Source: Amphiscolops sp. MND2022 (Eukaryota). Taken from it: a stretch of DNA of 64,000 nucleotides. The notes beneath the pieces were generated by a model that was not told the DNA's origin, did no database searches, and was given only the letters and a program-made list of their open reading frames with translations. Positions 12,593 through 49,812 of this stretch are shown here, in pieces. The position numbers and the translations under genes are program-made. The stretch lies in NCBI GenBank assembly GCA_964187785.1, contig OZ076409.1:50098001-50162000 (forward strand), read 5' to 3'. The first letter of the stretch is position 1. Every line of letters starts with the position of its first letter.

Positions 12593-12599
12593 GGTTAAA

Positions 12600-15500
12600 A
12601 TAATGGTTGAAATGTTGTTCTATAATTAAGTCCTGAGTAGGGATTAAAGAAGTTTATATGTCCTGTTCTAATCTCAGGTAATTCTGCGTCACAGAGGTAA
12701 GAAATGGATGTGACTATGAATGGTGATGGGGTTGTTTTGTGTGCTACTCTTGTTGAAAGAGAAAATGGATGAGGTCCTAACGAATTGAATGTGACTTCTA
12801 CTTCAAATTTTAATATGATTTGTTGTTCTTGTAGTCTTCGTAATTCTCTTTGTTTTCTTTGATTTGAAAGTGAGCTATTGTTTATAAATCTTGCAGGTAA
12901 TACAGTGTATCGAGGGTCTTCGTTAAGACTACGAACAATTCTTGAATTAACACGGATAGGATATTCGTGAGGGTTTGGTGTTGGAGGTCTTGAAAAATCT
13001 TCTAAAAATATTCAGGTAGTTGTATATAAGAGTTTGATGTTATTGAACTAGGTGAATGAACTTGTGAAAAATTAGCTGCGCTATCTGATATAGTTATTGG
13101 GTCTTCAGAAAGAAGAGAAGCTGTTTCAAATCCTGATGTGATTTGAAATGGCAGTGATAAAGAAGATGGTATAGTGGGTTGAGATGAGGAAAGAGAAGGA
13201 GTGTCTAATCTGGGTTGGGCTTGCTGTCTAACTAGTCTTGAGTTTTTACTTGAACTAGTTAAAGATTGTAATTCCTGAGAATTTCTTCGTTGTTGAGATC
13301 TAAGGTTATAATTATGTCTTGGTACTCTAGTACTGGCAGTTGAGTCAGAATCTTTATCTTTGTGATATGAATCTGTTAAAGATGAGGTAGTAGTTGAATG
13401 TACACATTCTAATTCAAGTTTGGGATATATTTGAGAAAATGTGAATAAACTTAGTTCAGATGGTGATGGAATTGGGTGTTGTTGTAATTTCTTCACTGGT
13501 GCCTTTATTGAAGTTTCTGGTAAGAATATTATTGGAGTATAACTTGTTGATGGTAAGTTGGGGTTTTGTGGTAGTTTGGGTGGAGTATGACTTGTTGATG
13601 GTAGGTTAAGGTCTTGTGGTAATGTAGGTAAAGAAGTTTTTCTTTTTGTTTTAGTTGTTGGTATTTTATGTGGACAAGAATTTATGTATTGCAGAACTGA
13701 GCTGGGGTCAGGGATATAAACGGAACGAGTGGTAGTAATTAGTGGAAGAGGAGGTCTTTTTAAAATACTTGAAGTATCTTGTGTAGTTGGTGTTGTAAGT
13801 GTTTCATCATTAGAGTCAGTAACTGGTGAACTTGTTTCTGAAAATACTAAATTTTGTGAAATAGGTTGTGGTTGAGTTGTTATTACTGATGTTTGAGTCA
13901 GGGATATAGGTGTATTGGTGGGTGTTGCTGGTACTCTATCAGGAGTATATGGAGCGGATGGACTGGGGTTTGAGGATGAGAATCCAGTATGTCTGCATCT
14001 GAGTTTAAATATGCTGTATATTCAGGTAATGTTTGGAGTGAATGTGTTGAACTAGAAGATGAATTATTTGTGGTTGATGATGGTGAATGAGTATGTCTAT
14101 CAATTTTGAAATCTTTTGTGTTGTGGTAGTTTGCTTCAAATTGTAAGTTAGTTAGTTCTATATTAATTATAGTTTCTTTCTTTTATTATCACTTGTGAAA
14201 AAAATTTTTTTTTGATTCAATTTCACATTAGGTTTCAAACTTTCTTTCTTTCTTTCAAATTTTCTTTCTTTCTGTATTTCAGCAGGATTTTTGAGAAAGT
14301 GAAATTATATCCTTTTCACCAAGGAAAAAACGATAGTCTTTTCTTGGTTGTGGGCGGAAATTGTATATATTATAGGAGTGTCTTCGGGGGTTAATAAAAT
14401 TATCATAGTCATGAATGTCTGATTGGTTATCTGAGTTGGTATTTTTAGAATCTTGTTCTTTTTCTTGGTACGGAAATGAAGAATATTGGCTAAATGATTC
14501 CGGTTGGAAGTCGATTGTGGATGGTATATCCGTTTCTTTATTAAATTTTGTGGAAGAAAATTGATCTTCGTCACTGAATTGGTCTTCATCGGAGTCAAAA
14601 GATTTTATTCGATCGTTTATATTCGAATAATTATCATTGAGTAAATGAGGATTATACTGTTGTAGGAAAGGAAAAAAATAATTGGTTCTTTTGGATAAAA
14701 AGGAACTAAATGATTTCTGTGTATGTGAGATGTGTAACCATCTTGATTAACAATTTCATATGTTATATCGGAAGTTTTGTTAATAATTTTGAATGGTCCA
14801 ATTCTGAGAGGTTTTTATTTGTCAGAAAAATGAACATGGAGAAAATTTCTTTTTAGTACAAACGTACCAATTTCCAAGGGTCTCGGATTGTGGTATGTTT
14901 TGTTAAAAAAAGCGTAAGAGTTAATTTTTCTTTTTGTGTTTTCATATACTGTGTGGTATGTTTGTATCATAGCAGTTTCAATGGCTAAGATCCATTGTGG
15001 GATCGGTTTAGATAAAATTTTATGGAAGAAGGGGTTTAGATTTGATTTGTCATAGTGTGTATGAAGTGGTAATTCTTGACAATTTTGGGAAGTACAATTT
15101 CTATATGTATCTCTTTGGAGATTGAGTTCAAAATTGATTGGAATTCTGGGTATAGTATGAATTACTATTTCATATGGAGATAAGTTTATTTCAGAAAGTG
15201 GTTGTGAATTATGTGCATAAGCATACATATGAACTCGAGTAGACCAGTTTCTGGAGTGATATGTAAGAAAAGTCTGATTTGAGTTCCAATATTTCTGTTT
15301 TGATTTTCAACTAAACCATTAGTCCATGGTGCATAAGGAGTTTTCGGTGAATGTCTAATTCCCATTAAAGTACAAAGGTTTGCGAATTCGGAATTAATAT
15401 ACTCTGATCCACGGTCGGTAACTAGGTATACAGGAGGTCCAAATTTTGTTATCCAATGATGTAGTAAGGAGTTAACAGCGTTCTGAGCATTATTTTGTTT

Positions 15501-26481: not shown

Positions 26482-27035
26482 TCTTGTTGCTTCATGCCTT
26501 AAGTGAATTTTGCCTGATTTTAACCTTGTTCACACCTTGAGTGAATATTGCCTGGTGCAGGAAGTGAAACTATTCGAGCGAACCTTGTTTTCGAGCGATC
26601 AAGTTTTAGTTTGACAACTTGAAAGTGCCGACCTGCTCGGCTTCCATGATGAAGTGGCAGATTTGACTCTCGGGGATGTTTGATTTGTTGACGACTGGAA
26701 ACACCTTAGACATGCACAGATGTCGTGTGGCTGACGGTAACTCGTGGTGGCGGGAACACTCTGGGGAAAATCAAGCTAAGCTGTAGTAAGAAGAACTGCG
26801 TTTATAAACCGTCTGACAATTAAGGTCAGGACTGAAAGTCTCCATTTAATTCAAACGAACGAATAAAAGAACGTGTAGAAGAAAGAAGGTACAAAGTGTG
26901 TCTCTAGCTGCTGTTTGAGCACTGGTTTATATGAATGAATACACAGACTGAAAGTGCCCCTACTTAGACTATGGGGAAGTCGGTCCACCAACACTGTTTC
27001 ACCGTGTAGACCGGAACCTCAATAGTCTAAGTAGG

Positions 27036-28076
27036 TGTCAGAACGAGTCACGTTCGGGTTGTTAACGGTGTTAAGTCCGTTACATTCACTAGTAGATGAT
27101 GAGATCTTCTCAGTTAAGGCCATTACAATACTCGTTAAGTCACTAATTTGTCTATTCATTTCCATGAAACGTTGGTCAACTGAACTCGAATTAGGATTTT
27201 GTTGGCTGTTGATAATATCTCCATTATCAAACTCATTCATCTGGTTCCTCGACAAGACTTCTGGAAAGCTGTTCTCACTTTCGTTATCACTGTTCTGTTC
27301 CATTCTACTGGAACTTGCTGCATAACTGTCTACGTACTGTGATCTCCTATTACCCATGCTTGGTTCTTTAATAAGACTTTTTGAGTTTCTAAGTTTATTG
27401 TTTAAATTGAAGGAGAAGAATTACAAGTTGTATGTTAATGATGTAAGCAACACTACGTTAGCTGAAGGTAAATTGTACTGAAGGTATTTTCACACTTGTT
27501 ACTTTCTGCACAATGCTGGTCACGCGTCAACGTCACATGACTGTTTCGACCAATGATATTGCTCTGTTGATTAGGTGTTAATTGGTGCGTCCTGCTGGTC
27601 GTAACGCAAATGGTCTTTTGTACGAAATATAGCACCAATATGTTACTATGGCTACGTGATTCATCTATCATCTTGTTAAACCGATACAACTTTAAGATGA
27701 TGGCGACATACCATCATTGCACGTAATTCTTCAGGTTACTGGTAAAACTAAATATGGTGAAAGCACTTGTACACTGAGTATAAATATGATGGACGCACTT
27801 GTACGTAAAGTATAATGATTAAATGATTCAAACTTTTGTACGTTAACTACAGGTTGGGAAAAGAATTGTTGATGATGGGATAGGCCCGTCATTGTTCAGC
27901 AGTAATTCATGATTATTCAAGTATCAGGCATTTTGCGTTTAACTGAGTTGTTTAATGTTTAGAATGTTTTTTATCAGTTTCATTGTTGCACTCTTTCTGT
28001 ATTCACCACTGTCTGACTTGATGTAGTGGTATTGGCAGCATTGCTTCTCGATTTAATTCATGCTTCCGGAATGACA
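27036..28076 (-). repeat. Element B 3' LTR (1041 bp)
   Basis: Direct repeat of 41521-42561 with about 20 substitutions by manual comparison. Confidence 0.97.
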
Positions 28077-28088
28077 CTCCCCCTCTTT
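28077..28088 (-). promoter_or_regulatory. Element B polypurine tract
   Basis: Plus-strand CTCCCCCTCTTT (minus AAAGAGGGGGAG) abuts the 3' LTR. Confidence 0.9.
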
Positions 28089-29069
28089 AAAAAGAAAGAA
28101 TCAATTGCAGGGGTTTTCGGGAGGGGCTGGTAGGGGAGTGGTGAGGTCAATGTAACAGCGTCGATTATGCTTCAATTGGTATCTGTTTAACGGCGTGTAG
28201 AAGTTGTTCGGCAGACGTGGTGATATCAACTGCATTGGTGTTGCTCATTCGGTTCAGTGCTGCGGCGACAGTGCTATTCCGTTCTGTAGTGGCAAGCGAG
28301 AGGGAATAATTGTGTTCGTGCACTCGGATATCCGCTTCGGTTGAGAGTAAATAGTCGATTGATGTGGTGATGATGGCCACGTCATCCATTCGTGCGCGTT
28401 GGAAGGAGAGTATTGGTAGGTAATGTAACCGGAAATGAATGAAACGTGGCAGCGTAATCAATCATTCGGGTGCTCAGTGTGGTAGTTCGTGAGTAGTCGC
28501 GGCTTCGTGCACTAAACAAATCTCCTCTTCGTCGCTGCCAAATACGAGGTTGAAGTCACTGACAGTTTAGTTTACTGTTATTGTTAGCGTTGATTGGTTG
28601 AATGTTTGTATATTGCGGTCTACCGGGTGGAAACATTGGCATTGATAAGGTCAAGAAAATTTCATGTAACTATCTGGTATTAGGGTGTTCAGCTCAACTG
28701 TGTGATTTACCATCGGATCGTAATTAATCAGTGCTTTGATTGTGAACTGTAATTGGTATTCATGTAATCGGCTTTTTTCCTCTTGTTTAGGATCATCAGG
28801 GTATTGAGCAGTGAAATGCAATCTTTTGAATCGAACTGTGTTGTTCTTTGAAGGTTGTGGTGTAGTAAATTGGAACTTCGGGCTACTCTGTCTGAGTCCC
28901 TTTGAGTTTGATATTATCTTCGGAATTAAATAACGTGGTTGATCAAGTCACGTCATTCATCGGTGAAGATGTTGAGGTCTGGTAGATCGCATTTTGTATT
29001 GCCACAGATTGAATTCTTTGTATTTTATTTTACTTTGGCGTTTGTATTGTCGTGGAAGTTGTATCTTCA

Positions 29070-32000
29070 ATGGAGTCAGCTGAGGAAGATGTATCCACTG
29101 TCGTGTTGGCTGCTGAAGGTGTTTTGGTCGATTTTGCGAACTTGAGTCATTCATCCGGAGAACAGGGCTTACAGGCGTCAGCTGAGGAGATGTTAGCAGG
29201 AGAGCCGGAATCCGTGTGTTGTCAGTTCGCACAACGTCTAAATGCTACCAACATAGAAACTGCTACCTCCCTGCTGGAAATTGCGCTGTCTCACGAATTT
29301 CGTAAGTGACTTCACTTGTATAATTTTCGTGTGTTGTATCAGCAACGTGTGTGACTCTTCAAGGCAATTGAGTGTAACATGGTTACTGCGCTGGTTTGAA
29401 CGCAGGCCGATGTCGTTAAGGTAAGGACTTCCCGGGAACTATTGCGTTGGGTAGACGGTTTGCCAGTTTGTTCACTTCTTGCGTTTCGTTATTGAGGCTA
29501 GTATTTTCTTTTTTTTCTGTTCCAGAAGAGCTGAATTTGGTTGACATTGTTGGCGTATTGCGCTGTATGCTTCACCCGGATGAGCCGTCATCAGATTCGT
29601 CCTCTGTCGGGACGTTTGAAGCCAGCTTGAGGGCTTACCTCGTCTCCCACAAAAGTAAGTAATCCGTTACCGTAATTTACTTGGTGGTTGCTGTAATAAT
29701 CTATTAATTCCACAAGTGACGTCGTTGGGGGGGGTTTGACTGTAAGGTGGTATTATAGGCTGAGTAGGGTATGCTATTTTGGTGTAGCCTCGTCATTTGG
29801 GTTGATTTGTTTTAGATGTCCCGGTCAGTGGTTGTCTGTCCCTGAGTGACCTCAGAACAGCGCTTGGTCAACTGGAGAAAGAATTGGGTCAGATCGTTAG
29901 GGCTACTGTGGAGTCAACGTTGGGCCGTCTCGGTACCGTCGGGGCTATCGCTGTTGACGACTTTGTTGTGTGTCTCAAGGCGGCACTCTGTGATGTAGTT
30001 GGTACAGCGACTTTGCAACCCTCTACTGTCGTTGAAGATGTGCCTGTGCTGCCAACGTCTGCCAGCCTGGCTCCACTAGTGCCTGGGTCAAGTCTGCCAG
30101 ATGTCTCTGTCTCAAGTCTTCAAGGATCCGTGATGCCTTCTGTTTTTGGTGACGTCCAGTCTTGTGTTCCCTCCAGTCGACGAACAGAGTCTGCTGCTAA
30201 GCCGGGTAAGAACTCATAAGTTCATGTGAGGGGTTTTAGTTTACAAGCTTTCTAAGACTTATGTTCATGTACTAAAATCTTTAGGTAACTACTGCAAAGA
30301 CAAACTCTTTTTTTGAGTTTTGCGGTTGCGTTTTAGTTCGCGCACGGAAAGTTAAAACACTGAAACCCTCGTATTTCGTGTCGGGAGTGGTCGGGACGTT
30401 TGTGGGGTTCCCTCGGCACAAACGTGTTGTGGACGGGTTCGCTAGATGCTTGCTGTGTCGTGTAGATCTCAGCATTGCCGGGCGTGGTCTCACGTCGTTG
30501 TGCGACCATTGGAAGGGGGTCGAACATACGAGGCTTGAGCAAAAGTACCGTATCATGACCCAGAAGCCATTGCTGGACAAACCGTGTCGTGCTGTCAATG
30601 CGGCAGAAGATCGACGTATACGTCGGGAACGCATGTCCGAGCCGCCTGTGTATCTGGAGTCAGACTTAAGTTTGACCGTTGACGAAAGAATCGCCATAGA
30701 GGAAGCCGAGGAAGCTGAGGGACAACGGCCTCAGTTAGCTGCTGGGAGTGTCAACTATCTGTGGTTGGGAAACTTCATCAACAGTTTCGTGAACGTGGTT
30801 TCCTTCGGTGCTGTTTTGCGGCTAGTGGACTCATGGCGGGACTGTATGGCTGCTGAATTGCGTTTTGAGTGCAGAACTTTGAATTATCCGCAATGTCAGG
30901 TATGTATTTCATTCGGTGCGGTATTCTTTTTTTCTCTAAATTTTGTTAGTTAATTGCCTTTTCATCTTAAGCTACCATATAGTAGTTGTTACTACGTAAT
31001 TTTCGGTTTTTTGGGTTTTCCCCTTTTTTTTGTTTCTGGTTCATGATGTTTACGCGTGGTGGTATCGGGTACATGTGTGTTTTGCAGAGCTTGGTGTTGT
31101 ATGGACTATACCCGTACGTTGTGGAACAGCTGGACTCGCTCATAGAGACCAGTACATGTATCGGTGTCAGTGTGTTTCGCTGCGGTTCTCGATGGCGCTG
31201 TGAATGTCATATCGTCAGTGAGCATCGTGTTGTGTCGGTTGTCATCGCTCTAGTCGTTGACAGTGCAGAATGGGAAAAGCAACTGCTAAGGAATGTCGTT
31301 CCCGTTCTCGCATGTTTGAAAGACAGGGATCAGTTGAGCACTGTGGTTGTGGAGGCAGACGTCTTGGTTGGCAAGGCATTGGCCGCTACGATTGCTCCCA
31401 AGACTCCCTTCGTGACTGGAATGGTTACTCAGACAACTGTGTTCAATGAAATTCGCAGGCAGTTTCTAATCGAGTTCTCTGGTCTGGATCCACTCAGTAT
31501 ACTGGAGTATTTTCGCATTCGCCTGATGTCCGTTATCCAGGAACGTTTCTTAGATCGATTGCCGCATTTACGAGAAGTAAGTATTTACTGTGTCTAGGGA
31601 ATGCTTTTGTTTGTAACTCATTCCTTTTTATGTTGTGGTCCTTCCTTTGAGATTGTGTTCTATACTCTTGTCCTGTGCTTTTGGTATGTGAAAGGAGGTG
31701 TACTAGTAATGTGTTTTGTTTTGCGGTATGTACGCTATGGAGGAAATGACGTCGCTCAGTTGGCAAAAGTGTGCACTGAAGTAGTTGAATACTGGAACGA
31801 TCTCGCCTTGTATTTCGGAACGCATCGCCCGAATGTGACTTCAGAGTTGCTGGTGATTACGCATTTGGAGAAACAGGTCTTTGACGATGCGATGGTTCGA
31901 CCGCGGTTTGCTGTACTTCGCGTGGTGTTAGATTTGAGTTAGTATAGGCTATTCATATCCTCCTGAGTCGTATTTGTTTTTTTGTTTTTCTTTGAAATTA

Positions 32001-33444
32001 GGTCTGATAGCTTCGTAACTAGAACTGGTGTTTGACGTTTTGGTTAGTTGGATTGTTCTTTTATAACGGTGATTGATGTCGTTTTTCTTCAGTGGTGAAG
32101 TACTGTACTCGACTTTGTGGGCAAGGACGGGACCGTCGCTTAGTCGTGGAGCGTGAACTTGCGCATTTTATTCGTGGATTATTGCAATTTGTTTGCTCGT
32201 CGTCTGTTATTCCTGCTGCCTACGACGTGACCGCTTTGTTAAAGCCAGTGGACCTCGAATGTGCTGATGTGGATGAGGATCTTTACCGTTTACATTTCGG
32301 GCAGTACTTTCGCTTTGACATCAGTACCCAGCTGCCTAATTTCTATAAATCAGTTCAAAAGTTGTTGGTTGGGCTTTGTACTGGATTGACGCGAATGTGG
32401 CAACGAGTGTGGTCTGAGTTTTTCAGTCTTACTCCTTTTGACCCTGATCTCATACACAGTGGTTCCGACGACCGGCGCACCGACGCTCTTGTGGAGACCT
32501 GTGCTGTTCTGACCGCTCATGGCTTACTTGACTTGGATTACGGAGGAGCAGTACTGCAGGAGTATATGGAAGTAACTCAGTACTTCAAGAGGCGTTGGTC
32601 GGCTTTGGAAGAAGGGGTGCTTGTTGTGGACGATATAATTGCCATGTGGATGTCGTACCCGCATTGGGATCGAAAGCAGCATTTACGGCGGGTATTGGAT
32701 GTAGTATTCGGAATCGTTTTGGTGAGCCCTTACGTTGCTGATTTCGTCGACGATTCTCAGACAGCTCTTGATTCAGATACTTTGGTATCTAGTTTGCATT
32801 TCGTGAGGAGCTGGTTCCGTTAATCATTTGCTGGACGGAAGCGACGGAATCTCCAAGGGTTGCTGCGCGTTACCGACTCAAGCGACATGTTGAAATCGCG
32901 TTTATCAGATGTGGTCCGAGCAAAACCCTGGGACCAGTTGCTCAAAGTCGGATTGGATACAACGTTGGCTAGCTGTGAGTCTGTTTTGACTAGCGATCAA
33001 AACTTAGCTGTTGTTCCTGCGGTGGATGATTAACGTTCAAACTTGTTAGCACAGCTCAGTACGTTAGATAAGGAACCTGCCAGTCTTGCTTGTGGTCCCT
33101 CTAGCTCTAAAGGAACACGTTCTGCTGCTACATCCAAAGCTAAAGTGGCCCGTACGCAGTCGGCGGTGAAGTTACAGACTCCTGTGAGTGCGCCTGTGCG
33201 TCGCTCTAGTTCTAAGGAAGCTTCTTCGCGGGGTCAAGGCTCTTCGACTCGAATTGGTGTCGGACGAAGGACCGGAGGGAAACCACGTGGTGCAAAAACT
33301 TTGATCCTGTCTACTTGTTCTAGCGGCTCTGTGTCGCACGACGTAAAGCAGTCTGTTGGTAAAGGAAAGAGTGCGACTGACAAGAATAAAAAGGCTCGAC
33401 GAGTTGTTCTCGAGTCTTCAGATGGTGCTTCGGATGACTATTAG
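29070..33444 (+). pseudogene. Seven-exon antisense gene inside element B (~1121 aa); BED-like Zn finger, probable inactive hAT-transposase derivative
   Basis: Exons 29070-29301, 29526-29654, 29816-30205, 30337-30899, 31088-31576, 31727-31937, 32093-33444 (3366 nt in total) join in frame with intron phases 1,1,1,0,0,1. Donors GTAAGT, GTAAGT, GTAAGA, GTATGT, GTAAGT, GTTAGT; pyrimidine-rich YAG acceptors, one reading CGG (31724-31726). In-frame TAA at 32821 and 33031. Confidence 0.9.
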
Positions 33445-35372
33445 TCTTGAAACAATTTGTCCGTGAACTTGCTTTATGCGATTTTTTTGTGAACTGTTTG
33501 TTTTACTTTGTTTGACCGCTTTATTTGATAATGATTGTTGTTTACATGAGTGTATTATTTTCCTTGTTTGGATTGCATAGTAAGTTACATGTTGCCTACG
33601 TTATACAAATTTTTTACATGTGAGCTTCGTTAGCTGGTTTCATTTTGTCAGGAAGCTGAGTAGAGTTGTTTTTTGTTCCAGTGAGATTGCATGGTGGTTA
33701 CTTGCGTAGCCACCACTTAAGACAGTGTTTCATTCACGGAGGTTTACCCACAGATCTCAGAAAGTGGTATTGATGCCCTGTGGTTACACCAAGGTGAATG
33801 AACGGAGCTGCACCGCTCCTTTCCAATGATCGAACTAATGTCTTGCATGCTATATATACTCTAAGTGCGTGTGCTTTAATGGGTGTTTAGGAGATTAATT
33901 GTCATTCTAAGGTGTCAATCATTTTTTGTGCTTTTAATGTATTATTTTAATTGTAAAGTTGAGTGTTAGTTCTGACGTCGTCATCGCTGATGTGTGTCAC
34001 GAGACGTCATCACTCGTGACGTGTGTCAAATGTTAACGTCACTTTAATGGAAAATGGGTTTCCCCATGTCCGTTACATTTTTTGGCAAGGGGTGGTGTGA
34101 ACCATCCCTTGTTTAGAATTTCGGTCATGTGGTGGTATTGACTACATGTATTTTGTACCTGTGTTCTTTCTGACGCGGCGCTAGGACTATGAATCATCAG
34201 TAAGAACAAAGGTGTCACGACTTAATTGTCGGGTAATGGTGACGACTGCGTGTAACTGTCCTTCAGGAGGATTTTTTTTCTTTTCAGTTCATTGGGAAGG
34301 TTGTTTGCCGTCGCAAAAACCCATACAAAACTAACACCGAATCCACTTGCTAAAGAGCCAGCTTCATTTGAATGTTTGACCAACCACACAGAAGACGCGC
34401 TTTTGATGACGCACCCACACAGCCGAACCACATCATGGTTATCCAGGGCGGAAGTGTGAATTTAAGTTCTGAAGACGTAACCTAAACGGATCGGCTAATT
34501 CTTTTACGTTCTCGTTTGTGGGCTGTTATGTTTGTAAAAGGGACGTAATTTAGTTGATTCAGAGTCGGTGGTTACGGAATTGCAAAGCAATTCCTTTGAA
34601 GGCGTGTGGTTGGAGATTTTCGTGAATTGCATGAAGTAGTGGTTCACTTGCACGTGTTTTACATGTACTTAGCAATTTCCGGTTAGGTTGATGTGGTGCA
34701 TATGACTGCATTGCTCAGCTGTCTCGGTAGGGAGTAACAATTTACTCCGCCAGTAAACTTGGGTCTGCAGGACAGTGAGTATCAGTCGTCGCTGAATGGT
34801 GTAAAGTAAATTGAGTATTTCAATGGTATGGTTGATACATGTGGTGATATAGACTGCATTCAGTTAATTGCATGTATTTTCTTTTTATTTATATTAAGAA
34901 TGATGTGGTATGCGTGGCAGCGTAAGGTACTTCTTTTCGTTCATTCCGCTGATGGAATAGAGTGAAACGTTAAATAACACGTAGCGACGCGGTGTGTGGA
35001 ACTGCGTTACGGCTGTCTCGTCTGTCGTTCGTTAGCCGGTTAAGGGCGGAAATATGCTTTGACCGGAAATTTTGAAAATTGATGACAGTGATTGTTAGAC
35101 GTTATTTGTGGTATCATTCAGTATCGTTTTTCTTCGTGGCTACTTGATTTAATTTACATGTATGTGTTACGAGATTCTCTCTTTTTTTTGGAGAGAGTGT
35201 AGAACACTCCCATTTAAATTTTGCTTGTGATATCACTTCTCGTGCTGATACGAGGCGAAGCCTACGAGTTGTCAGCAAGAGGGAAAGCAGATGTTATGTT
35301 TGCATGAGTTTTAGTTGGCGGGTCTGTCTTGCATGAATTTTAGCAAAGCCGGTTTGACTCGGAGTTCGTGGA

Positions 35373-38300
35373 CTATAAGTCTTGGTAGGTTTTCGATTGC
35401 GGTTCGGTTCGGAGGTTGTACCGTGTTGCGTTGTTACGCGACGTTGTGTGGTCATGCTCATTATGAATTGTCGTGGTATGTTCAGTCACAGATTCGCTTG
35501 TTTCAGTATCAGATTCGTTGCTGGTGTCGTGATGAACAACTGAATTGTCAGGAGGTTGCTCGCAAGTTTCAGGTGGGCTCTCAGGAATTGGTTGCATCAG
35601 TGTTTGGTCATTCGATTTCCGTACATGCTCATAATAGATGATGCCATGTTCATTGTCGATTTCTTCTTGATCGATTGTTTCCGGTGCTGGTTCTGCGTAC
35701 AAATGTTGGGGCATGTGGTCATTGAAGAGCGCTTGATCATCGGCCGCTTCGGGGTCAGCGAACAAGCGATTTGAGTCTTCTTCAATGTCCGGTATTGGTG
35801 CGTTCGGTGTGAAAGGACGTAGTCGCATCCTATGCACGCACTGTGTTCGGAAGGTTCCGACCTTCCTGATTATGTAGTTAAAGTTTGTCAGTACTTTGAT
35901 TACTTCCCATTTGAAGTCATTGAAGTTAATCTTGTCGGACTGTGTTGTGAGTTTGGGATTAAGCAGGAATGTGTAGTCATTGACCTTTAATGGTAACGCT
36001 TGGGCTTTACGGTCGTAGTACTTTTTGTACTTGTGGTATGCTTGCAGTATGTTGTCGTTGACTTGATGGTACTTGTCGTTCACCTGGTCAACTAATCTTG
36101 TTATATCAGTTTCCGTGGTTTCACATTTCAGGGGGTTACCGAATTTGAGGTCTAGTGCGTTAAACGGAACTCTGCCGCGGAAGACTTCGCTCGCAGTGCA
36201 CTTGAGTGATTGATGGTAGGTTGTGTTATGAGCCATTACCGCAAGGTTAACGTACCTGTCCCATTGGGGGGAGTCGACGGAAATGTTAATCTTCAGAATC
36301 TGTTTCAGTCTTTGGTGGGAACGCTCCACCATCCCTATGGTTTGGGCATGCTTTACAGTAGCGTGATCGATTTTGATTCCGGCAGTTTTCATTATTTCGG
36401 TCATGATGTTGGATGTGAAAGCCGTGCCTTTGTCGGTGATAATTGTCTTCGGGACGTAGGCGTATTGGGTGAATATTTGCATGAGCGCTTTCACCACCGA
36501 TTTAGTGTCTGGTTTTCGTATCGGTACAGCGAACAAATACCGTGAGAAGTAGTCGCACGCCGTCAGGATGTGCGTATATCCGTTTGAGTTAGGTAGTTCG
36601 CCTACCAAATCGATTTCCAGTACGTCTTCCGGACCGTTGCGGGGGTCGTAGATTTTTTCCAGAGGAGGCGTTTGTCGTTTTGGATTAACAGGTTTTGCTT
36701 TGATGCACTCAATACAGTTACTTACGTACTTTGACACGTGTTCGCTCAGGCTTTGTATGTAGTAACGCTTGCGGAGTTCTACCAACATTTTTGATGCCCC
36801 AGGGTGTCCCTGCATGGGGTCGCCATGCATTGTCCTGATTATGGGCATAGTAGTTTCTGGAGGTACTACGATTTGTTTGAGTAAAATTCCGCCAGTGTTA
36901 TCAAAGAAGTTCCTCTACAGCACTTTGTTGACTACTTCAAGTCTTTTTTTGTTTTTTACCAGTTTTTGAAAAAAGGAACTAGTAAAGTTAACGTGGTTTG
37001 GTAGTGGTTCGTTGTTCACTAAGATGCGAACCATTTTTTGGACGTCTTGGTTACTTAACTGATCTTGGACGATTTGTGAATCCCCTTGCGGGCAAACCTG
37101 ATTTACCGAGTTGGGGTGGTGACGTCTGGTAAACTCGTCAGTATGATGGAAGGGGTGTCTCCTGCCAGAACGGGTTCAAGGTGTCGGCTGATGATCTGAA
37201 TCATCTTGAGACGTTCATCGTCATGTGTTTGATGGTTGTTCGCCATTGAGTTTAGCAAAGTTCGCATCTTGGTGAAGTCGTCTGCTGGACCGGTGGTTTC
37301 AAGCTGATGTGTAGTGGGTGTCGCTACATCGGGTTGCTGTTGGTCCGGGTCGTAGTCTTCCTCGTCCTCGTCCTGTTTTGGGGTTTTGGCCGCAAGATCT
37401 ATCTCGATGTGGTGGACTGGAATCTGGTCATTCATTTTCAAGTGAATTCTGTCTTCAGGATTAACGTCGAGTCGAGACAGGTAATCTGCAGCAGGGTTCT
37501 CGACTCCAGGGACGTGGGCGAGAACAAAGTCAAATTGATGTGCTTGGTCGCAATGGTTCCACAGTTTGGGTGGTATTCGTTTCGACTGGAAAAAGCGGGT
37601 CAGAGCTTTGTTGTCTGTCGTCACAATTGTGGGTTTTTTGACTTCCCACAGTATGTGAGCAAATTCGTCGAAGGCGAAGTGCATTGCGAGGAATTCTTTA
37701 GCATACATAGTCAATGACATTTGACCTTCCGTGAATCGTTGCGAGCCGAATGCTACAGGAGCGTACGTCTTCTTCTGTCCATCATTGGCTTCGGTGTAGC
37801 CCTCAATGAGGAGCACGTACCCTGCTGCGTGTTCTCTCGCATCACACATGATGACCAGTTGCTTGTCTGGTAGTGGTAGTCGCAGAGATAGCTTTGCAGC
37901 TCGTGCCAGATTCTGATTAATGTCAAAGATTGCGTCCTTGTGAACCTGCGTCAGGGTGAACTTGATGTCTTTCTGTAGTAATTTGTACAGAGGTACAAGC
38001 TTTTCTGCCAACATCGTTATGTACTGTCTGTAGAATTGTACAAATCCGATGTAGCGTTGTAGTAATTTGACTGACGTTGGTGTTTTCAAGTTGTTGAGGA
38101 ATTTGTCGATCTTGTCCTCAAGTGGTGCAATCCCTTTGGTAGTGATGCTTCTACCCAAGAACTCGATCTTCGGGTGGCCAAAGGCGCATATTGACATCGA
38201 CAGCTTTAGTCCTGCCTTCTGTATCTGCTGGAAAACTGCTTCGATGTTGATTATCAGTTCGTCCACATTGTTGGCAGCGATCCCAATGTCGTCGACGTAT

Positions 38301-40253
38301 TGGGCACGTTTGTCTGCTTTTACTAGTGCATCCAGGTACTCGCGAATTGTGCTGTTGAACGCAGAAAAAGACCTATTCAACGCTTGCGCGAGTCGGAGGT
38401 AAGCAAAGGTTCTGCTGCCAAAATTGAATGCCAGAAGTTGTATTGACTGTTCGTCGGCCATTTGAAGGCAGTGGTAAGCTTGCGAACAGTCAAGCTTGCA
38501 AAAGTACTTCTTGCCAGCCATATGCTGGGCTGCATCGGCAATGGTCGTTACTGGATGGTTGTGTTTGTTGTAGTCATTTTTGAGGAGGTGGTTGATCCGC
38601 CTCAAGTCGACTAATATCCGAAGTTTCCCGTTGTTTTTTCGTTGTGCAAAAATTGGGGAGGAATATTTGCTGTATGGTAACGTTGTGATGATCACGTACT
38701 CCTGAATCAGTGCGAGTTCAACCAGCAGGTCATCTTTCAGATTGGTTGGAGTAGGTAAACTCTGGGCGTACACGGGATCATCGTGTTTGGGGTTCAGCTT
38801 GATTTTGAAATCGGTGTTGATGCAGATATCAAGACGATGTCTAGCAAATATCGTGTGGTATTTGACGAGCAGTTCTTCGATCCTCTGTTGCTCGTGCTCA
38901 GTGAGGATCGAGTCGTCCCAGCTGAAATTTTTGAGGAACGCTTGGCGTTGTTCGTCATCGCATGTCGGGTTGAGTTTTTCAGCTTCTCGGAGTCTGATGA
39001 GTTCGTCGTAGATACGTCTTTCTATTTTATTTAGCTTGTCAGGATCGTCACATGTTTCGGGCGTCGGGTACCATCGTTTATCATTTGTGGCACTGGGATC
39101 CTGGAACAATTGGTTGATCACGTTAGCCGCTTCATCAGGGAATTTAGTGATCAACGTCAGCTGCTCGTTAGTCATTGGCTGGATGTTTCTGGCTTGGTTT
39201 GGCGTAAGTATTCGGAAGACTGCGATTGTGCTGTTCTGGGGTATTGTAACTGCGTGGTCCATGTGGTTGGTGATTTGGACGTGGGTCTGTTGGTCCTTGA
39301 TTTCAGACATTGATGGGGACACTAGCAATTTGGTTTTTCGTTCAAAGGCTGGGAACGCCTCTATTGTGCCTGTCACCGTTCCAATGTTCTTGTCCGTTGT
39401 AGCAGTCACAAAGATTTGTTGTCCGGGCGAGATGGTTGTTTTTTGGGTTGTTCTGAGTTCCAACATCTGCAGTTTGAATTTCCCATTTGGCGGTTTTAGT
39501 TGGAGGGTTATTTCTGGGAATCGCACAATGTTATTTGCAAGGTCTAGCGAGACAGAGTATTTCTTAAAAAAGGACATTCCGATGAGGATGTTTCCCATTG
39601 TTGGTAAGATCATGAATGTCTCTTCGAATATTTTTTCTCCAATGAAAAATCGAAGAAGCACTTGTTTTCTCACCGGAACGATGTTTCCGTTGGCTATTTG
39701 GACTTTGAAGTCCGGTGCTGGATTTTCTTCCAACTGGGCTGCTGGGTGGGCTTGTAGGATTCGACGTAGTTCATTCTCAGACATCGCGTTCTGGATTGCT
39801 CCACTGTCCAGTAGCCCTTGATTTTCATATTCCCGGAATTAAAGAGGGACGTAGAGCATCTTGTTTCTTCTGTCTAACTGAAGTGTAGCACTTAATGGTC
39901 TGATGTTTGTTGGCTTCGGTTGGTGCCCCTGTTTGGTATTGTCATCCTGTTCGTTCGTCTTTTGTTGTGTTTCTGGTTCTGGCCAGGTTGACACTCTCTC
40001 GTTGTTGTGGTCTAGCTGCAGTCTCTTTCGGAATGCAGCCCTTCGTTGTACAATTAGGGTTGTCGTCTATGAGAGGAAGTATGTGGTAGTTGTTTGTCGA
40101 GACTTTGTGTACATCGTATTTCGTCGATGGTTTAGTCTGTTTGTCAGGACGCTGCCAAAATCCTGTCGTTGTAGTTTTCGAGTAGTAGTGAGTTTGAGTT
40201 GGTTTTTTGGTGCGCGCACTTTCTGTTTGGTTGGACTGAGGATGACGTGGCAT
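35373..40253 (-). pseudogene. pol: Element B pol (PR-RT-RNaseH-IN), disrupted
   Basis: LLDSGA at ~39800; QYVDDI; RNase H MCDARE, KEFLAM, TDNKAL; IN HGDPMQGH...CIEC, IDLVG, TDKG, VER. Lesions near 39945, 39839-39841 (TAA), 37103 and ~36916. Confidence 0.96.
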
Positions 40254-41842
40254 TACAAGTTTTTTGAATTCGTGTGGAATTCATCGTTGTAATCCATGTC
40301 GTAGCAGTCGTTAGTTTCTTCTGGTTGGGTAGTCTGGCTTGTCGCTTGCGTGACTTGGTAGGTTGGTTGATAGTTGTTTTGCGACTGTTTGAATTCACGG
40401 CGGAATTCTCGGTTTTCATTGGTGGACTGCTTGTCATATGGTACATTTCGGTAAGCCGATGCACCTGGTACTCTGTCTCTGCAATCCCGTGCGGAATGTC
40501 CGATCTTGCCACAAATTTGGCATACTAGTTTGGAGTTGTATCGTGGTTTTTCGGTTTCTTGTTGTTGGGCATTGTTGTTTCCAGATTGGGGACGCTGTTG
40601 TGATTTCTTCGTTATTCCGTTGGCTTCGTCCCTGTGGCGTTTACGGCATTCGATCCACTTGTGACCCAGTATGTTGCAGTATCTGCAATTTCCTTCGAAT
40701 CTTCGTATAACTTCTCTTGTGGCGTTCTTCTCAGTGTTGTTGTGGTTGGGGGCCGGCTGAGCGTTGTTTTGCTTCGATTGGTAGTTGTAGACCTGGTTAA
40801 GTGGCTGCATGTCTGAGGTGCCAGGAAGCAATTGTGCATATTGGCAACGGCGTTGTACAAACGTCTTGATTTCTTCGGCCTTGGCATCGTGTTTGCCTGC
40901 CATGGCAAGCTCATTTTGGATCTGGATTGGCAGTTTTGCAAACAAAAATGTCTCGGCAATGTCGTTTGCCTTGTCTCCATACGCTTGTTTAGCGAGTTTC
41001 TTGTATTTGGTGAGGAAATCGGCAAACGACTCCTTCGTGGGGTCGTACCTCATTTGGTCGAATTTATACTTCGACACCTCTCTGAGGTCTTCCTTTGCAT
41101 ACTCTTTGTTGAATGCTTGCAGGACGTCGTGAAGTGTCGTTTCAGTTGTGATTTTTAGGGTTTGCCAGAATTCTATGGCCTCGTCTCGGAGTAAGCTCTG
41201 AAAGTAGTTCAGTTTCTGCTCTTCTGTCAGTTTATTCATGTGTGGGCGGAGGTGGTTCTTCAGTAGGTGTTCGAACTCATTATATTTGTCTCGGTTTCCG
41301 CGGAAGAGAGGGACTTGAGTTTGGAGGATTTTGGGCTGTATCACTCCATCCGTCATTGTTGTCCCTAGATTGTGGATTTCCGTCATGACGTCGTCCATTT
41401 GAGGGTCATTGGTGGATGGTGCAAGGTTTCTGGTCTGATTGGTTGCAGGGGTTGGAAGGGTCCTGCGTGGCTGTTGGAGGTTTGGAGTCGGGATTGAGTT
41501 CGTGGAGACTCCTGTCACCATGTCAGAACGAGTCACGTTCGGGTTGTTAACGGTGTTAAGTCCGTTACATTCACTAGTAGATGATGAGATCTTCTCAGTT
41601 AAGGCCATTACAATACTCGTTAAGTCACTAATTTGTCTATTCTTTTTCATGAAACGTTGGTCAACTGAACTCGAATTAGGATTTTGTTTGCTGTTGATAA
41701 TATCTCCATCATCAAACTCATTCATCTGGTTCCTCGACAAGACTTCTGGAAAGCTGTTCTCACTTTCGTTATCACTGTTCTGTTCCATTCTACTGGAACT
41801 TGCTGCATAACTGTCTACGTACTGTGATCTCGTATTAACCAT
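40253..41842 (-). CDS. gag: Element B Gag (529 aa), initiating inside the 5' LTR
   Basis: Capsid-like VPLFRG...YFQSLLRDEAIEFW; two CCHC knuckles CRYCNILGHKWIEC and CQICGKIGHSARDC. Confidence 0.95.
   Translation of the reverse strand: MVNTRSQYVDSYAASSSRMEQNSDNESENSFPEVLSRNQMNEFDDGDIINSKQNPNSSSVDQRFMKKNRQISDLTSIVMALTEKISSSTSECNGLNTVNNPNVTRSDMVTGVSTNSIPTPNLQQPRRTLPTPATNQTRNLAPSTNDPQMDDVMTEIHNLGTTMTDGVIQPKILQTQVPLFRGNRDKYNEFEHLLKNHLRPHMNKLTEEQKLNYFQSLLRDEAIEFWQTLKITTETTLHDVLQAFNKEYAKEDLREVSKYKFDQMRYDPTKESFADFLTKYKKLAKQAYGDKANDIAETFLFAKLPIQIQNELAMAGKHDAKAEEIKTFVQRRCQYAQLLPGTSDMQPLNQVYNYQSKQNNAQPAPNHNNTEKNATREVIRRFEGNCRYCNILGHKWIECRKRHRDEANGITKKSQQRPQSGNNNAQQQETEKPRYNSKLVCQICGKIGHSARDCRDRVPGASAYRNVPYDKQSTNENREFRREFKQSQNNYQPTYQVTQATSQTTQPEETNDCYDMDYNDEFHTNSKNL
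40259..40265 (-). promoter_or_regulatory. -1 ribosomal frameshift slippery site A_AAA_AAC
   Basis: Minus strand TCA AAA AAC TTG TAA in canonical phase just before the gag stop; the -1 frame is open into ORF 39942-40253. Confidence 0.8.
41508..41520 (-). promoter_or_regulatory. Element B primer-binding site (within the gag ORF)
   Basis: TGGTGACAGGAGT directly abuts the 5' LTR end TGACA. Confidence 0.85.
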
Positions 41843-42561
41843 GCTTGGTTCTTTAATAAGACTTTTTGAGTTTCTAAGTTTATTGTTTAAATTGAAGGAG
41901 AAAAATTACAAGTTGTATGTTAATGATGTAAGCAACACTACGTTAGCTGAAGGTAAATTGTACTGAAGGTATTTTCACTTTTGTTACTTTCTGCACAATG
42001 CTGGTCACGCGTCTACGTCACATGACTGTTTCGACCAATGATATTGCTCTGTTGATTAGGTGTTAATTGGTGCGTCCTGCTGGTCGTAACGCAAATGGTC
42101 TTTTGTACGAAATATAGCACCAATATGTTACTATGGCTACGTGATTCATCTATCATCTTGTTAAGCCGATACAACTTTAAGATGATGGCGACATACCATC
42201 ATTGCACGTAATTCTTCAGGTTACTGGTAAAGCTAAATATGGTGAAAGCACTTGTACACTGAGTATAAATATGATGAACGCACTTGTACGTAAAGTATAA
42301 TGATTAAATGATTCAAACTTTTGTACGTTAACTACACGTTGGGAAAAGAATTGTTGATGATGGGATAGGCCCGTCATTGTTCAGCAGTAATTCATGATTA
42401 TTCAAGTATCAGGCATTTTGCGTTTAACTGAGTTGTTTAATGTTTAGAATGTTTTTTATCAGTTTCATTGTTGCATTCTTTCTGTACTAACCACTGTCTG
42501 ACTTGATGTAGTGGTATTGGCAGCATTGCTTCTCGAGTTAATTCATGCTTCCGGCATGACA
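41521..42561 (-). repeat. Element B 5' LTR (1041 bp)
   Basis: Direct repeat of 27036-28076, followed by TSD GTAGG. Confidence 0.97.
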
Positions 42562-43131
42562 GTAGGTTGTACTTCTGTCAAGTTCAGTCTGTGTAGTCAT
42601 TCATTTAAACCAGTACTCAAACAGTTAGAGCCACACTTTGTACCTTCTTCCTTCGTTGCGTGGAAATAAAATACGTTGAATTATAATCTTTCAATGGACG
42701 TCGGGGCTTCATGGAAATTATTTGGTAGGCTTCATGTACAACTGGTTATTAGCTATTCATTATTACATACTTTTAATCCGCTGTTCGCGTTATGGAACGT
42801 GGCACTTTCATTTCAGTTCGCCATTCATTACCAGATTGCATTCCTGTTATTAGGTTCATCAAACTTCCTTACATTGCAAAGCTAATTTTATCATTTGATT
42901 GTTAATAAGACGTTATTGCCCAACATGCTGGATGAAGCCGCGCTTACCGAAGGTCATTGACCAAGGCTAGTTGATGGGGAATTTGCGACAATTTTTTCTA
43001 ATAGTTAAGCACCCTCAAGCCGTTAAAAAACACATTGAGAAACTCTCTAGGACCTATCAACTGCAGCGGCAAACTAACATCCGGAACGTTTGAGATGAAG
43101 AGTGTTAAAAAGTAGATCATTCTAGAAATGT

Positions 43132-45250: not shown

Positions 45251-48200
45251 TCATTCATCGCCAGTGTCATCCATAGTAGTATCGTCATTTTGTAGCACTT
45301 CATTTAATGATACGGCCAATGCTTCCGATGGCGGCAGGTCTTGCTGATTCAAGCTAGGTAGTTCGTTCAACTCTAATTCGATATCAGCTGCTAGTGTTCT
45401 CGTCAATGACGTGGGCGTGACTTCCAAAGCTTCTAGCGGCACTGTCTGATCATTTGAAGTGGCATTGGTGGTGATGATTGTGGTTGGGTTAGCTGTTTCA
45501 GGGTCATGGATGGGTACATTGGTATTGGTTGGTGTTGCAGCTATTGCAATGCTGATTTGACTTGAGGTTGACATCATGGAAGTTGAGGTATTTTCAGCAG
45601 TAGAAGCCTCCTCGTGCCCTGCTGCCTGTCTCATTGAGGTCGAGCCCGCTGGGCTTAGTTCTGGCAGCTGGTCTGCGAGGTCTTGGCGTCCATATCGGAG
45701 AAATGTTTCTTTGAAAGTTCCAATTGCATTTAAATAACTGTCATATACGGTATTTCCTTCGTCCCTCTGCTTGGCTATCAGACTCATGAAGATTTCTATG
45801 GCCATTTGTGGATTGTTCGGCATCTCTTCATTCAGGGGCAAGGTCTTTCTATTGGGTTCTCTTGCGATTTTCGGAACTGTCGCTTTCAGAATTTGGAATC
45901 CTTGGTAGATCATTCTGTCCACTATCGGCGGGTCTGCCCAATGCGTAGTATCGGACAGGATTTTGGCTGTATCGGCTTGCGGTGTCACTCGAGGGTTGTA
46001 CATTCGGGATACATCTTGTATTACTCGATGCTGGAGTCTTTCTGGTGTTGAGCCTTTTCTTCGTCCACCCAGGCGTCGTTCCGCATTGGTTAGTACTCGG
46101 AGAATACCGGGCTCATCCCAGCTGGCAAAGCCTTGCAATGCTCCAGTGGTGGGTTCTACAGGGGCGTGCAACCATTCTACTGGATGAAGTTCTAGCGACA
46201 TAGGAACAGCGCACCGCGCTCTGGCTCGGATCAGGGCACTGAAATTGTACTCGACCTGTTTCTTGTCTTTGATAATCGTGTATGCCATTGGTGGTCGGAA
46301 GTTGGCAAAGTTGCGCACTAGCATTTGAAAATCCGGTTGTCTGGTGTCGTCTTCAGGGTCCACAAAATGTAGAATGGATAATGTAGGTGCTTTTGCGGCA
46401 ACTCTAAGCGGCTGTGTAGGGTATCTCAGGGCCATCATTGAACCAAATATAGGCCAGACTATGGGTGCAATCATGGGGACTAGATCTTCAGTTTCTACCA
46501 ACATGAGGCTGGCTACTTGCGAGGGGAATAGGAAACCTGGCAGGTTATTGCTGTTGGGTTTTTGACTTAGCGAGTCGTCTAAAGTGCTCATCACACCAGA
46601 GACATTGACCCAGGCTGAGTAAACCCAAGCCAATAGTGTTTCGATATTCTCGGCGAGTTGGGCGCGCAACTTCAAAGCGCCTGCAGGGTCCAAAGTGTTT
46701 AGAATGGCGTTAATCCAATTCCGCTGGTTCTTGGCGAATATGAGAAAGCTGAGTAGACAGGAGTTGTCTTTAGCTAGGACTAATCTCTGCACCAGGTGCA
46801 CTGGGCCTTTGTAGACGGCGCCTAGACCAACGGCCATCAGGTATGCCAGGATTTCAGCAATTGTGGCCCTTTGCATTGCTTCTATATATAGTTTAACTTG
46901 CTGCTCATCTAAGCTGTTTTCACGCTGCACCATCGTTGGTACCCAAAATGGCGAGATATGATACAAGAATATGGGAATATGGGGAAGGGAATTCCATGGC
47001 TTTCTGCTGTTTCATTCAAGGTCACCTGCAGCGTCTCATGCCAAGATTGGTAAGTATGCTGTGGGTTCATTCGGTTTTCTTGCGCTGTCTTTTGAGCTAA
47101 TACTGTCAACAATACTAGGGTGGGGGGAACCATGTTGGGCTTTGCGTCGATCGCTTGTGTCGCCACTGGAAAAACAGTCGCGTCGGTCCGAGTTTGTTTT
47201 ATTCCTTCTGTCTTCTTGAAGAGAGCTAGCAGCTCTTTGTGGAATTTAGCGTTGTGTGTCCTCAATTCTAGCGTTGACTCGTCTCTCCTTTCAAACCATC
47301 CGTTGTCAATCATGTTTGCCCGTTCCTTTTCATTAGGTTCCTTAACTCGGCGTACTCCATTTTCATCAAAGGTGCGATGCGCCATTTGCATGCCAAAGTC
47401 AAAGGCAGTAGCATCATCAGCTAGTAACTGAGAGTTTCCCTCGTATCCGGTACAAGCCTGCAAGGCTTTCGAGATTTCCGCCAGGAGTGCAGAATAAGAA
47501 TTTTCACCCGGACGCCAGGTTGTGGCACTCACTTTCAGGTTCGCTGCTATTATGTAAAATGACAAATTCTGTGAGTAAGATACTTCTGATACTAGATATA
47601 ACAGTTGCTGGAGTGGTTTAGGTAAGTATACGTATCCTGGGGACGACATAAAGACTACCCCTACGACGGGCTTCATTCGCTGCACCCGCCTGATCAAATT
47701 TCTCATTGCTTCGACGTACGCAATTACCTCTCCTGTCATCACTTCTTCCGTCAGTCTACGGTTGCCTCCTTCAAAGTATTTCAGCGTTCCTCGAAGAGCC
47801 AAGTGGTCGATCATGTTGCTATATATTAGGATCGGAGGGAATGGAATTGTCTCTGTGTGGTTGACGGTGGGGCCGAAGACCTTGCAGGTCACCTCTGCCA
47901 TTTCCTCTAGCGATGTGCAGGGCAAGTTCATCACGCGAACATCCATCAGGGTGTTGTTCATGTTCGCCGTTGCTTTCATCGTGGAGTCCATGAACAAGGC
48001 AATTCTTGTCTTTTGCAACATCTCTTTGCCCATGGGGAGCAAGGTTGTTATGTCTCTCATGAAATCACGGCTTTTCATCAGTTGGTCATCGTATCTTGCT
48101 GGTCGTTGTATGGCTAATTTTACTTTCGAGGGGAGTGATCTCATCAATGATGACTTGTCTTTATGAAGATTCTCCTTTATTCTCTCGAACCAGGGAGGAA

Positions 48201-49557
48201 TGCGGTCCAGAAGGAGTGTTGGCTTCTTTACGGGCCTCAAGTAATGCACTCCGATCGTTGCTTTTTCTAGGTTTTCCACATCCTCTGGGTTTCCTTTGCT
48301 GGTAGCTGTTTCGAATTTCTGCACCTCCAATCCTAAGTCTGGATTCTCTGATTTCGCTTCTCGCTGCAGACGCACCGTGTCTCTGGCAGCAATGTCAAGC
48401 TGTCGTGCCTCTGTCTGCGATAGGAGTTCTTTAGAGAATCGCACTCGTCTAGGCTCCGGCTGTTGCACTGGGGATGGATTCGGGCTGGAGTTCGTTGCAT
48501 CCGAATTAGCTAAGTCTCTGGCCCTTTTCTTTTGAACTAGCTGTTCGATCTTGCTTTGTTCCTTTCGATTCAGTACGTCGCGGAGATCGATAGGTGCCTT
48601 GGCTGCTTGCCTTTCTGCCAGTTCATGCTGTTTCTGTTGTTCTTGGCGTTCTGGGTCGGCCTGAAAACCTATTAGGTGATGTGGGTCCTGCGACGTTGAA
48701 GGTAGCAAGGCATCGTAAGAGTCTTGAAATCCGATCATATCTGTCATGATGGGCACGTCGAGCGGGTTCCGCATCATTATGGTTCTCGGTCTTTGGCTTG
48801 TATTTTGGGTGGCATCTTCATCGTTCTGCGCGCTCGTGTGCGCTTCTTCTACCCCTTCCCCCCTGGAAGACGAAGGGAGCATGAGTTTGTTGTTCTCTTC
48901 CAGGCGCCTGACACTAATTGGGGCGGATGATGGTGGGAGCGTCAATATTGGCGGAGGCACTGTTGGCAAAAGGCATGTGAATTGCTGTGTGGGCGATGGT
49001 TGCGTAGATTGACAGTCGCGGGCGGTCTCAGGGGCAGTTATCGACGATATTGCAGGTGCTTGCGTCAGGTTCGTTTGAAGATGTCGTTGCTGCTCCATGG
49101 GAGGTCTATTAGGCTCGCCATATCTCAAGTGCGATCTGTGGTCATCAAAATGGTGGGTGAGATCGTGTCCTTGCCACGCGCCATTGTGGAATTCCGCAGT
49201 TCTGCGGTAAGATCCAATTCCAATTGATATGGAGAGGGTGAAGTCCGGATGTATCTCGAGAGATTGCATTTGGGCAATTAGTATGGCCATCCCGGTCACC
49301 AGTGATGGAGAAGGGGTCTCTTGTAGGGTCGATTGGACCAGACCAAGCTGGTCAATTCTGGTTTGAGATTCTTCGACAGGCAGCGAGGACACGGGAGCTT
49401 CTTGCGTGGCAATTGTCGGCGGTTGTGATTGGTCCATTCTGCTGGTGCTCGGTTGCGAGCTTGTTGTTGATGGAGCTGGCATGCGGGTTTTAGCCGATTG
49501 ATCCATTAAAGAGATAGGTAGCGCCTTGGATAAATGACTATGGTGGATATACTGCAA
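45251..49557 (-). CDS. Element C large accessory ORF (~1430 codons, one frameshift near 46940) with SGNH/GDSL-like domain
   Basis: 882-aa and 571-aa ORFs overlapping at 46909-46966; IALFMDS, VMNLPCTSLEEM, ILIYSNMID and YVEAMRNLIRRVQRMKP..VVFMSSP follow the SGNH block order; no signal peptide or C-terminal anchor typical of env. Confidence 0.75.
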
Positions 49558-49812
49558 ATGTGATGATATATGACTGGCTGCGTCAAGTGCATGGGAATTG
49601 ACAGGACTGAACTAGAAAAAAGAAAACGACAGACGTCAATTTGAGCTAAAATATTATTGCTGATGAGTGCAGTTGATATGATAGACATTAAAAGACAATA
49701 AGATAAAACAGATTCGACAATTCACGTTAAAACCTAGTTCAGGGATTACTCAAACAACACATATGCTAAGAACAGGACGAGTGGCCTCCCTTGTTTTTTG
49801 TACCAGAGTAAT

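Follow-up and report, generated by a model that had tools for sequence, protein, structure and literature searches.

An antisense seven-exon gene resembling a disarmed hAT-like transposase in a Ty3/gypsy-type retrotransposon of Amphiscolops

Element B and its antisense gene

The window analysed here, a 64-kb stretch of the Amphiscolops sp. MND2022 genome (64,000 nucleotides of contig OZ076409.1, assembly GCA_964187785.1; positions are those of this whole stretch), holds three long terminal repeat (LTR) retroelements, all on the minus strand. One of them, element B, carries between pol and its 3′ LTR a gene on the opposite strand (29070-33444, plus strand), which we call the cargo. Its seven exons, all on the plus strand, add up to 3366 nucleotides (nt), or 1122 codons including the stop. 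Exon 1 (29070-29301) supplies the ATG and is followed by exon 2 (29526-29654) and exon 3 (29816-30205), the latter a variable low-complexity linker. Exon 4 (30337-30899) encodes a BED-like finger of the form C-x2-C...H-x5-H (C288, C291, H308 and H314) and a pre-core segment that can be aligned to transposase, and exon 5 (31088-31576) a predicted ribonuclease H (RNase H)-like core without Asp at the first catalytic position and with a conserved Glu at the likely second. Exon 6 (31727-31937) covers a degenerate RW region and has a non-canonical acceptor in this copy only. Exon 7 (32093-33444) holds a helical insertion-like region, a C-terminal hAT-like segment without a conserved catalytic Glu, and a basic tail.

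Conservation across copies confirms a real, protein-coding gene, with its splicing predicted from the conserved sites. Across 26 sibling loci, 260 of 271 alignable splice sites retain their canonical dinucleotides; for other intronic GT/AG dinucleotides the count is 2411 of 3155. The eight most distant loci give 80/85 and 590/970, respectively. A distant subfamily (exon 4 identity about 78%) has the exons in the same order in 14 loci; in all 14 of these, intron 4 is constant in position, with lengths of 88 to 185 nt that cover all three phases. The ratio of non-synonymous to synonymous differences (pN/pS) is lowest in the modelled frame, out of six, in 20 of 21 exon comparisons, with one tie, while the introns look neutral. 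Low values in the mirror frame too are to be expected; the open frames and the splice signals fix the strand. An alternative intron-6 donor at 31942 was rejected because it breaks the frame and brings in 28 stops. This copy is itself damaged by internal stops at codons 915 and 985, both in exon 7, and by the non-canonical intron-5 acceptor. These lesions are private to it: the stops are shared by 0/19 and 0/18 of the sibling loci covering them, and the acceptor change by 0/24. All 12 full-length sibling copies examined have private lesions of their own.

Element B is a Ty3/gypsy-type LTR retrotransposon on the minus strand, as seen from the order of gag followed by protease, reverse transcriptase, RNase H and integrase (PR-RT-RH-IN), and it has the hallmarks of an LTR retrotransposon: paired TG...CA LTRs, a target-site duplication (TSD) in the 4-6 bp range, a primer binding site (PBS) and a polypurine tract (PPT). 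The left TSD, GTAGG (27031-27035), is followed by the 3′ LTR (27036-28076, minus strand, TG...CA) and the PPT (28077-28100, minus strand); at the other end the 5′ LTR (41521-42561, minus strand) adjoins the right TSD, GTAGG (42562-42566). The LTRs mismatch at 19 of 1040 positions compared. The PBS (41503-41520, minus strand; left end approximate) starts with TGG, pol (35373-39838, minus strand) is split into two open reading frames (ORFs) in this copy, and gag (40253-41905, minus strand) encodes a zinc knuckle. The gag frame opens inside the 5′ LTR and crosses the PBS (41521-41905, minus strand), so that the gag N terminus is also present in the 3′ LTR. The structural points of the first-pass annotation are confirmed: seven plus-strand exons joined across six introns into one 1122-codon frame, damage limited to two stops and one acceptor change, and a position between pol and the 3′ LTR.

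Two spacers flank the cargo. The one on the PPT side (28101-29069) has no selected coding frame and is presumed to hold the promoter and 5′ untranslated region of the antisense gene. In the 77% subfamily it is conserved at 79-88% in most 100-nt bins, which is similar to or above the exons, and yet it is non-coding; a sense-strand ORF3 was looked for there, and between the PPT and the cargo only short ORFs appear, none in a frame under selection. On the other side, a non-coding spacer (33445-35372) separates the converging 3′ ends of the cargo and pol and contains three copies of a 22-nt repeat considered below. A hairpin in it (33729-33802) has z -1.92, and a 26-nt stretch (34241-34266) pairs with an inverted counterpart at 34765-34790.

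Copies, selection and exchange of the cargo

The genome (1.07 Gb) was searched for copies of both the cargo and the integrase. Exon 4 gave 3832 first-pass candidates, 150 of which were scored and are all at least 70% identical; for at least 67 of these 150, the integrase matches listed include a convergent one 4.6-9.5 kb downstream (rough chance 0.2). Among the best 150 integrase matches, 132 are paired convergently with a cargo homologue no more than 20 kb away, at a distance above 10 kb in two cases. This count includes the matches of two more distant cargo queries (the best 63 of 105 matches for one) and four pairs recognised by eye. The paired cargo types include ones only 39-55% identical to that of element B. 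The remaining 18 integrases are unpaired, which may reflect truncation, true absence or a cargo beyond the matches listed. An apparent absence of the cargo beside integrases 79-87% identical (0/51 at first) did not hold, since a more distant cargo query recovers 45 of the 51. LTR matches flank many close copies of the cargo.

Between subfamilies, the ratio of non-synonymous to synonymous substitution rates (dN/dS) is 0.09-0.15 across all segments (dS 0.65-1.4), and 0.01-0.11 in the finger segment; between the closest sister copies it rises to 0.65-0.89. This pattern indicates selection on the replicating lineages, followed by decay of the inserted copies. The flanks of the gene in the window yielded no candidate for terminal inverted repeats (TIRs) with an 8-bp TSD, as expected of a fixed cargo and not of a nested DNA transposon. 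The first-pass annotation had named these same two checks, the state of sibling copies and the search for TIRs with an 8-bp TSD that would have meant a nested DNA transposon, and both come out in its favour. Members of a large Ty3/gypsy-type lineage thus carry this protein-coding gene as a fixed component, which is copied along with the element; it belongs to the class of antisense accessory genes of LTR retrotransposons and is not a hAT transposon.

The LTR-linkage evidence covers the element B lineage. Outside it stands one cargo subfamily, the P0026 type (e.g. C1:68932967 and C2:54965040), which is very young, with 13 equal-scoring copies and an open last exon, and 39% identical. This subfamily offers some room for a DNA transposon, nested in a retroelement or mobile to this day, or for a neutral passenger. 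For the element B lineage these readings are largely refuted by the missing TIRs and TSD, by a position and orientation fixed in the 132 pairs, and by purifying selection on a protein with its catalytic positions lost (see below); we regard them as highly improbable.

The cargo does not diverge in step with the integrase. Integrases 93-97% identical go with exon 4 at 73-79%, and integrases at 79-87% with a cargo near 40%. Moreover, two copies (L022 and L023, on C10 and C2) change subfamily within exon 4: relative to the window, their exons 1-3 are 91-96% identical and the sequence from exon 4 onward is 63-79% identical. This independent divergence, together with the two switched copies, argues that lineages swap the cargo as a module. 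No cargo relatives were confirmed in the JGI metagenomes. Far more distant homologues (P0099 and P0166, only 21-25% identical) lie on short contigs; the best match to P0099 in the present genome has 28% identity.

Likeness to transposases and probable loss of catalytic positions

The finger, the peptide EYWNDLALYF and the basic tail pointed out by the first-pass annotation are all present in the spliced protein. The finger ligands C288, C291, H308 and H314 are kept in 48, 48, 46 and 48 of 48 aligned rows, and the finger matches a profile of BED-DDE transposases (built from the fingers of L108, L129 and L070) with an hhalign E value of 1.9e-5; Atlas leads also point to a BED-type finger (0.88). 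When 3027 ORFs are searched with the cargo profile, the three best all belong to these transposase loci and match in regions that played no part in choosing them. The matches to this one transposase group are collinear at the finger, the pre-core and the C-terminal regions, the last of these being weak (L108 residues 475-603, E 0.017-0.055), and the anchor spacings are 83/77/183/98 residues in the cargo and 90/90/181/96 in the BED-DDE transposase. The predicted model of exon 5 has the RNase H strand order, and Foldseek places Hermes at rank 1 (E 1.4e-3), with 5 of the top 25; it is absent from the VIA top 50.

Pfam gave nothing meaningful on the exons or on 18 and 36 homologues, with no PF05699 hAT C-terminal match and no direct zf-BED match to the cargo finger; the L108 finger itself scores below the zf-BED cut-off. 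A PDB sequence search with four profiles (A1-A4) found nothing, and a profile comparison with two Ac-type hATs of this genome gave E 0.31-0.77. The exon 7 model has a confidence (pLDDT) of 41 and its fold searches were uninformative, and in Atlas exon 7 retrieves only generic helical proteins (at most 0.86). L108 (600-2985, minus strand) is a metagenome contig with an intact BED and D-D-CxxH-RW-E transposase, its finger and core lying in overlapping frames; it is detected at the sequence level by neither the Pfam hAT models nor Hermes, and no further members of its group appeared in the viral and prokaryote collections. In the host genome, canonical hATs account for at least 150 matches and the L108-related group for 63.

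Based on these comparisons, the cargo probably descends from a hAT-like BED and DDE transposase. Its capture would probably have been an old antisense insertion of a transposase gene whose ends have since eroded, from a source group present in the host genome. A selected cargo of other origin, either a captured host gene or a zinc finger and RNase H-like protein that arose by convergence, would fit the gene-like six introns and the weakness of all homology scores; the collinear matches to a single transposase group and the top Foldseek rank of Hermes make this very unlikely, while passage through a domesticated host gene before capture could have occurred.

The protein appears to lack the full triad expected of an active enzyme, at positions that were themselves placed by weak alignments and predicted strands: none of 56 rows has Asp at position 468 (first catalytic), 57 of 59 have Glu at position 527 (likely second), and no Glu is conserved at 886-887. 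The CxxH and RW motifs are not conserved in the cargo either; the H of the former and the W of the latter are described as important for hAT transposase in PMC5225508. The first-pass annotation had likewise found the RW motif and the DDE residues unrecognisable. The cargo protein would thus no longer be able to cut DNA. The last 131 residues form a basic tail (25 Lys and Arg against 9 Asp and Glu), and a kept finger, a kept scaffold and a basic tail combined with lost catalysis suggest a nuclear DNA-binding protein.

Such a protein might also act at integration, by joining the pre-integration complex, by tethering that complex to particular host DNA or chromatin, or by providing nuclear import. 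Selection on the whole transposase scaffold and the basic tail, beyond the finger alone, is consistent with this, as is the swapping of cargo and integrase between lineages, and nuclear import has been discussed for plant antisense ORFs (PMC7264820). However, copies are scattered over all large contigs, and free swapping is ill-suited to a tightly co-evolved contact between the two proteins; we consider a role at integration unlikely.

A candidate binding site and a proposed role

A 22-nt family-specific repeat is a candidate protein-binding site. One copy lies in the 3′ LTR (28020-28041, plus strand) and the others at 28214, 28361, 31053 (intron 4), 34126, 34690, 34838 and 42505, so that element B has eight sites, all non-coding and including both LTRs. 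The repeat has imperfect inverted arms and occurs on one strand only. A matrix built from six sites (leave-one-out scores 16.6-29.8 bits) has no matches in the neighbouring elements A and C, none in 100 simulations and one in 265 kb of control DNA. The repeat also occurs in distant subfamilies; in one of them (L047 and L053) a copy lies towards the end of intron 1, apparently at a non-orthologous site. As an RNA hairpin, it reaches z below -2 at only one of six sites.

The two neighbours carry additional ORFs of their own. Element A is a decayed LTR element of 21.7 kb whose Env-like ORFs (10459-12619, minus strand) match the PF24664 Monjiviricetes fusion glycoprotein (E 1.1e-18 and 3.7e-5). 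Element C, with an LTR identity of 99.7%, has three long extra sense ORFs downstream of pol (616, 900 and 586 amino acids; 45251-51663, minus strand) without a Pfam match; by eye, we take one to contain a candidate macro-like stretch and another a candidate SGNH-like stretch.

Introns on the antisense strand are not removed from the packaged sense RNA, and the gene is therefore copied intact; this is how its six introns survive reverse transcription. We propose that an antisense transcript of its own, with a start site in the 3′ LTR or close to it, would express the cargo protein, which would bind DNA sequence-specifically in the nucleus, on copies of its own element, possibly at the 22-nt repeat in LTRs, spacers and an intron. 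It would then activate or de-silence these copies, a role that DNA transposons assign to VANC or TnpA; a non-coding, element-specific repeat is the pattern expected of such a self-activating factor. According to 10.64898/2026.08.24.746577, transposases serve as sequence-specific activators, and loss of DDE recurs among those that were domesticated.

The 22-nt motif was identified post hoc, is strictly one-stranded and could be the site of a host factor. Given the fixation, intron survival, origin and lost cutting, we lean towards a nuclear, sequence-specific DNA-binding regulator of its own element; the explanation as a whole, a fixed and disarmed hAT-like transposase regulating its element, stands just on the favourable side of an even call. 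More tentatively, the LTR lineage may have domesticated a whole intron-bearing hAT-like transposase as a swappable activator or anti-silencing factor that binds the element's own repeat, which would help to explain its high copy number.

A defence or competition factor is quite unlikely. It would act as a dominant negative against host hAT transposases or a silencing complex, or as a self-limiting repressor, with antisense RNA perhaps adding control by double-stranded RNA. The hAT and related matches in the host genome are consistent with it, convergent transcription is possible, and double-stranded RNA control has been proposed (PMC7264820); but most of the related transposase group has decayed, and its distance stands in the way of a good alignment, which makes mixed oligomers unlikely, and action through RNA alone does not explain a dN/dS near 0.1.

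Both plants and fungi have LTR elements with antisense accessory genes between pol and the 3′ LTR, whose origin and function the literature states as unknown (PMC7264820, PMC11963269 and PMC8365987); the first-pass annotation's mention of such ORFs in plant Tat/Retand elements agrees with PMC7264820. The closest plant systems are the Retand/Tat antisense ORFs (TRP28 'transposase 28' domain), maize Grande gene23 and rice RIRE2. PMC7264820 leaves the origin of the plant ORFs unresolved and finds similarity to other transposable elements lacking, and the accessible text of PMC11963269 mentions no introns, whereas the element B gene has six conserved introns and likeness to a whole BED and DDE transposase. 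The brtn gene of Botrytis Boty is likewise an additional antisense gene in a Ty3/gypsy element, for which the citing passages available in PMC7264820 and PMC8365987 give no transposase origin. With hAT transposases (Hermes, L108) the cargo shares domain order, finger pattern, a predicted RNase H-like core and anchor spacing; unlike them, it does not conserve the first Asp, CxxH, RW or the Glu, has no TIRs, moves by retrotransposition and has long N- and C-terminal extensions. According to 10.64898/2026.08.24.746577 and PMC13547354, VANC (VANDAL) and TnpA (Spm) are element-encoded sequence-specific activators, TnpA being transposase-derived, and in domesticated dead transposases such as MUSTANG the loss of DDE goes with regulatory co-option. 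Those proteins serve DNA transposons or the host; here the beneficiary would be an LTR retrotransposon. The ORF3s of bdelloid rotifer LTR elements (GDSL, DEDDy, env) are also modular extra genes exchanged among retroelements, but they are expressed as spliced sense messages, and the available text of PMC5408684 mentions neither a transposase nor an intron. A term search of PMC13524379 gave no pertinent passage.

The first-pass reading of a hAT-transposase-derived accessory gene in a retrotransposon is therefore supported as to its likely origin, its function being inferred. A search of literature titles and abstracts found no report of an LTR element with a hAT-derived antisense gene or of a whole disarmed hAT-like transposase in that role, though subscription journals, Repbase/Dfam reports or supplements could hold one; antisense accessory genes as such are known already. 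This case combines a source that can be traced, an enzyme of a DNA transposon, with clear selection. There are hundreds of copies in several subfamilies that have exchanged cargo, as well as a candidate binding site, which makes the regulator hypothesis directly testable. If it is true, a retroelement can keep a multi-intron gene indefinitely by placing it antisense, and transposase domestication can benefit another transposon instead of the host, across transposon classes.
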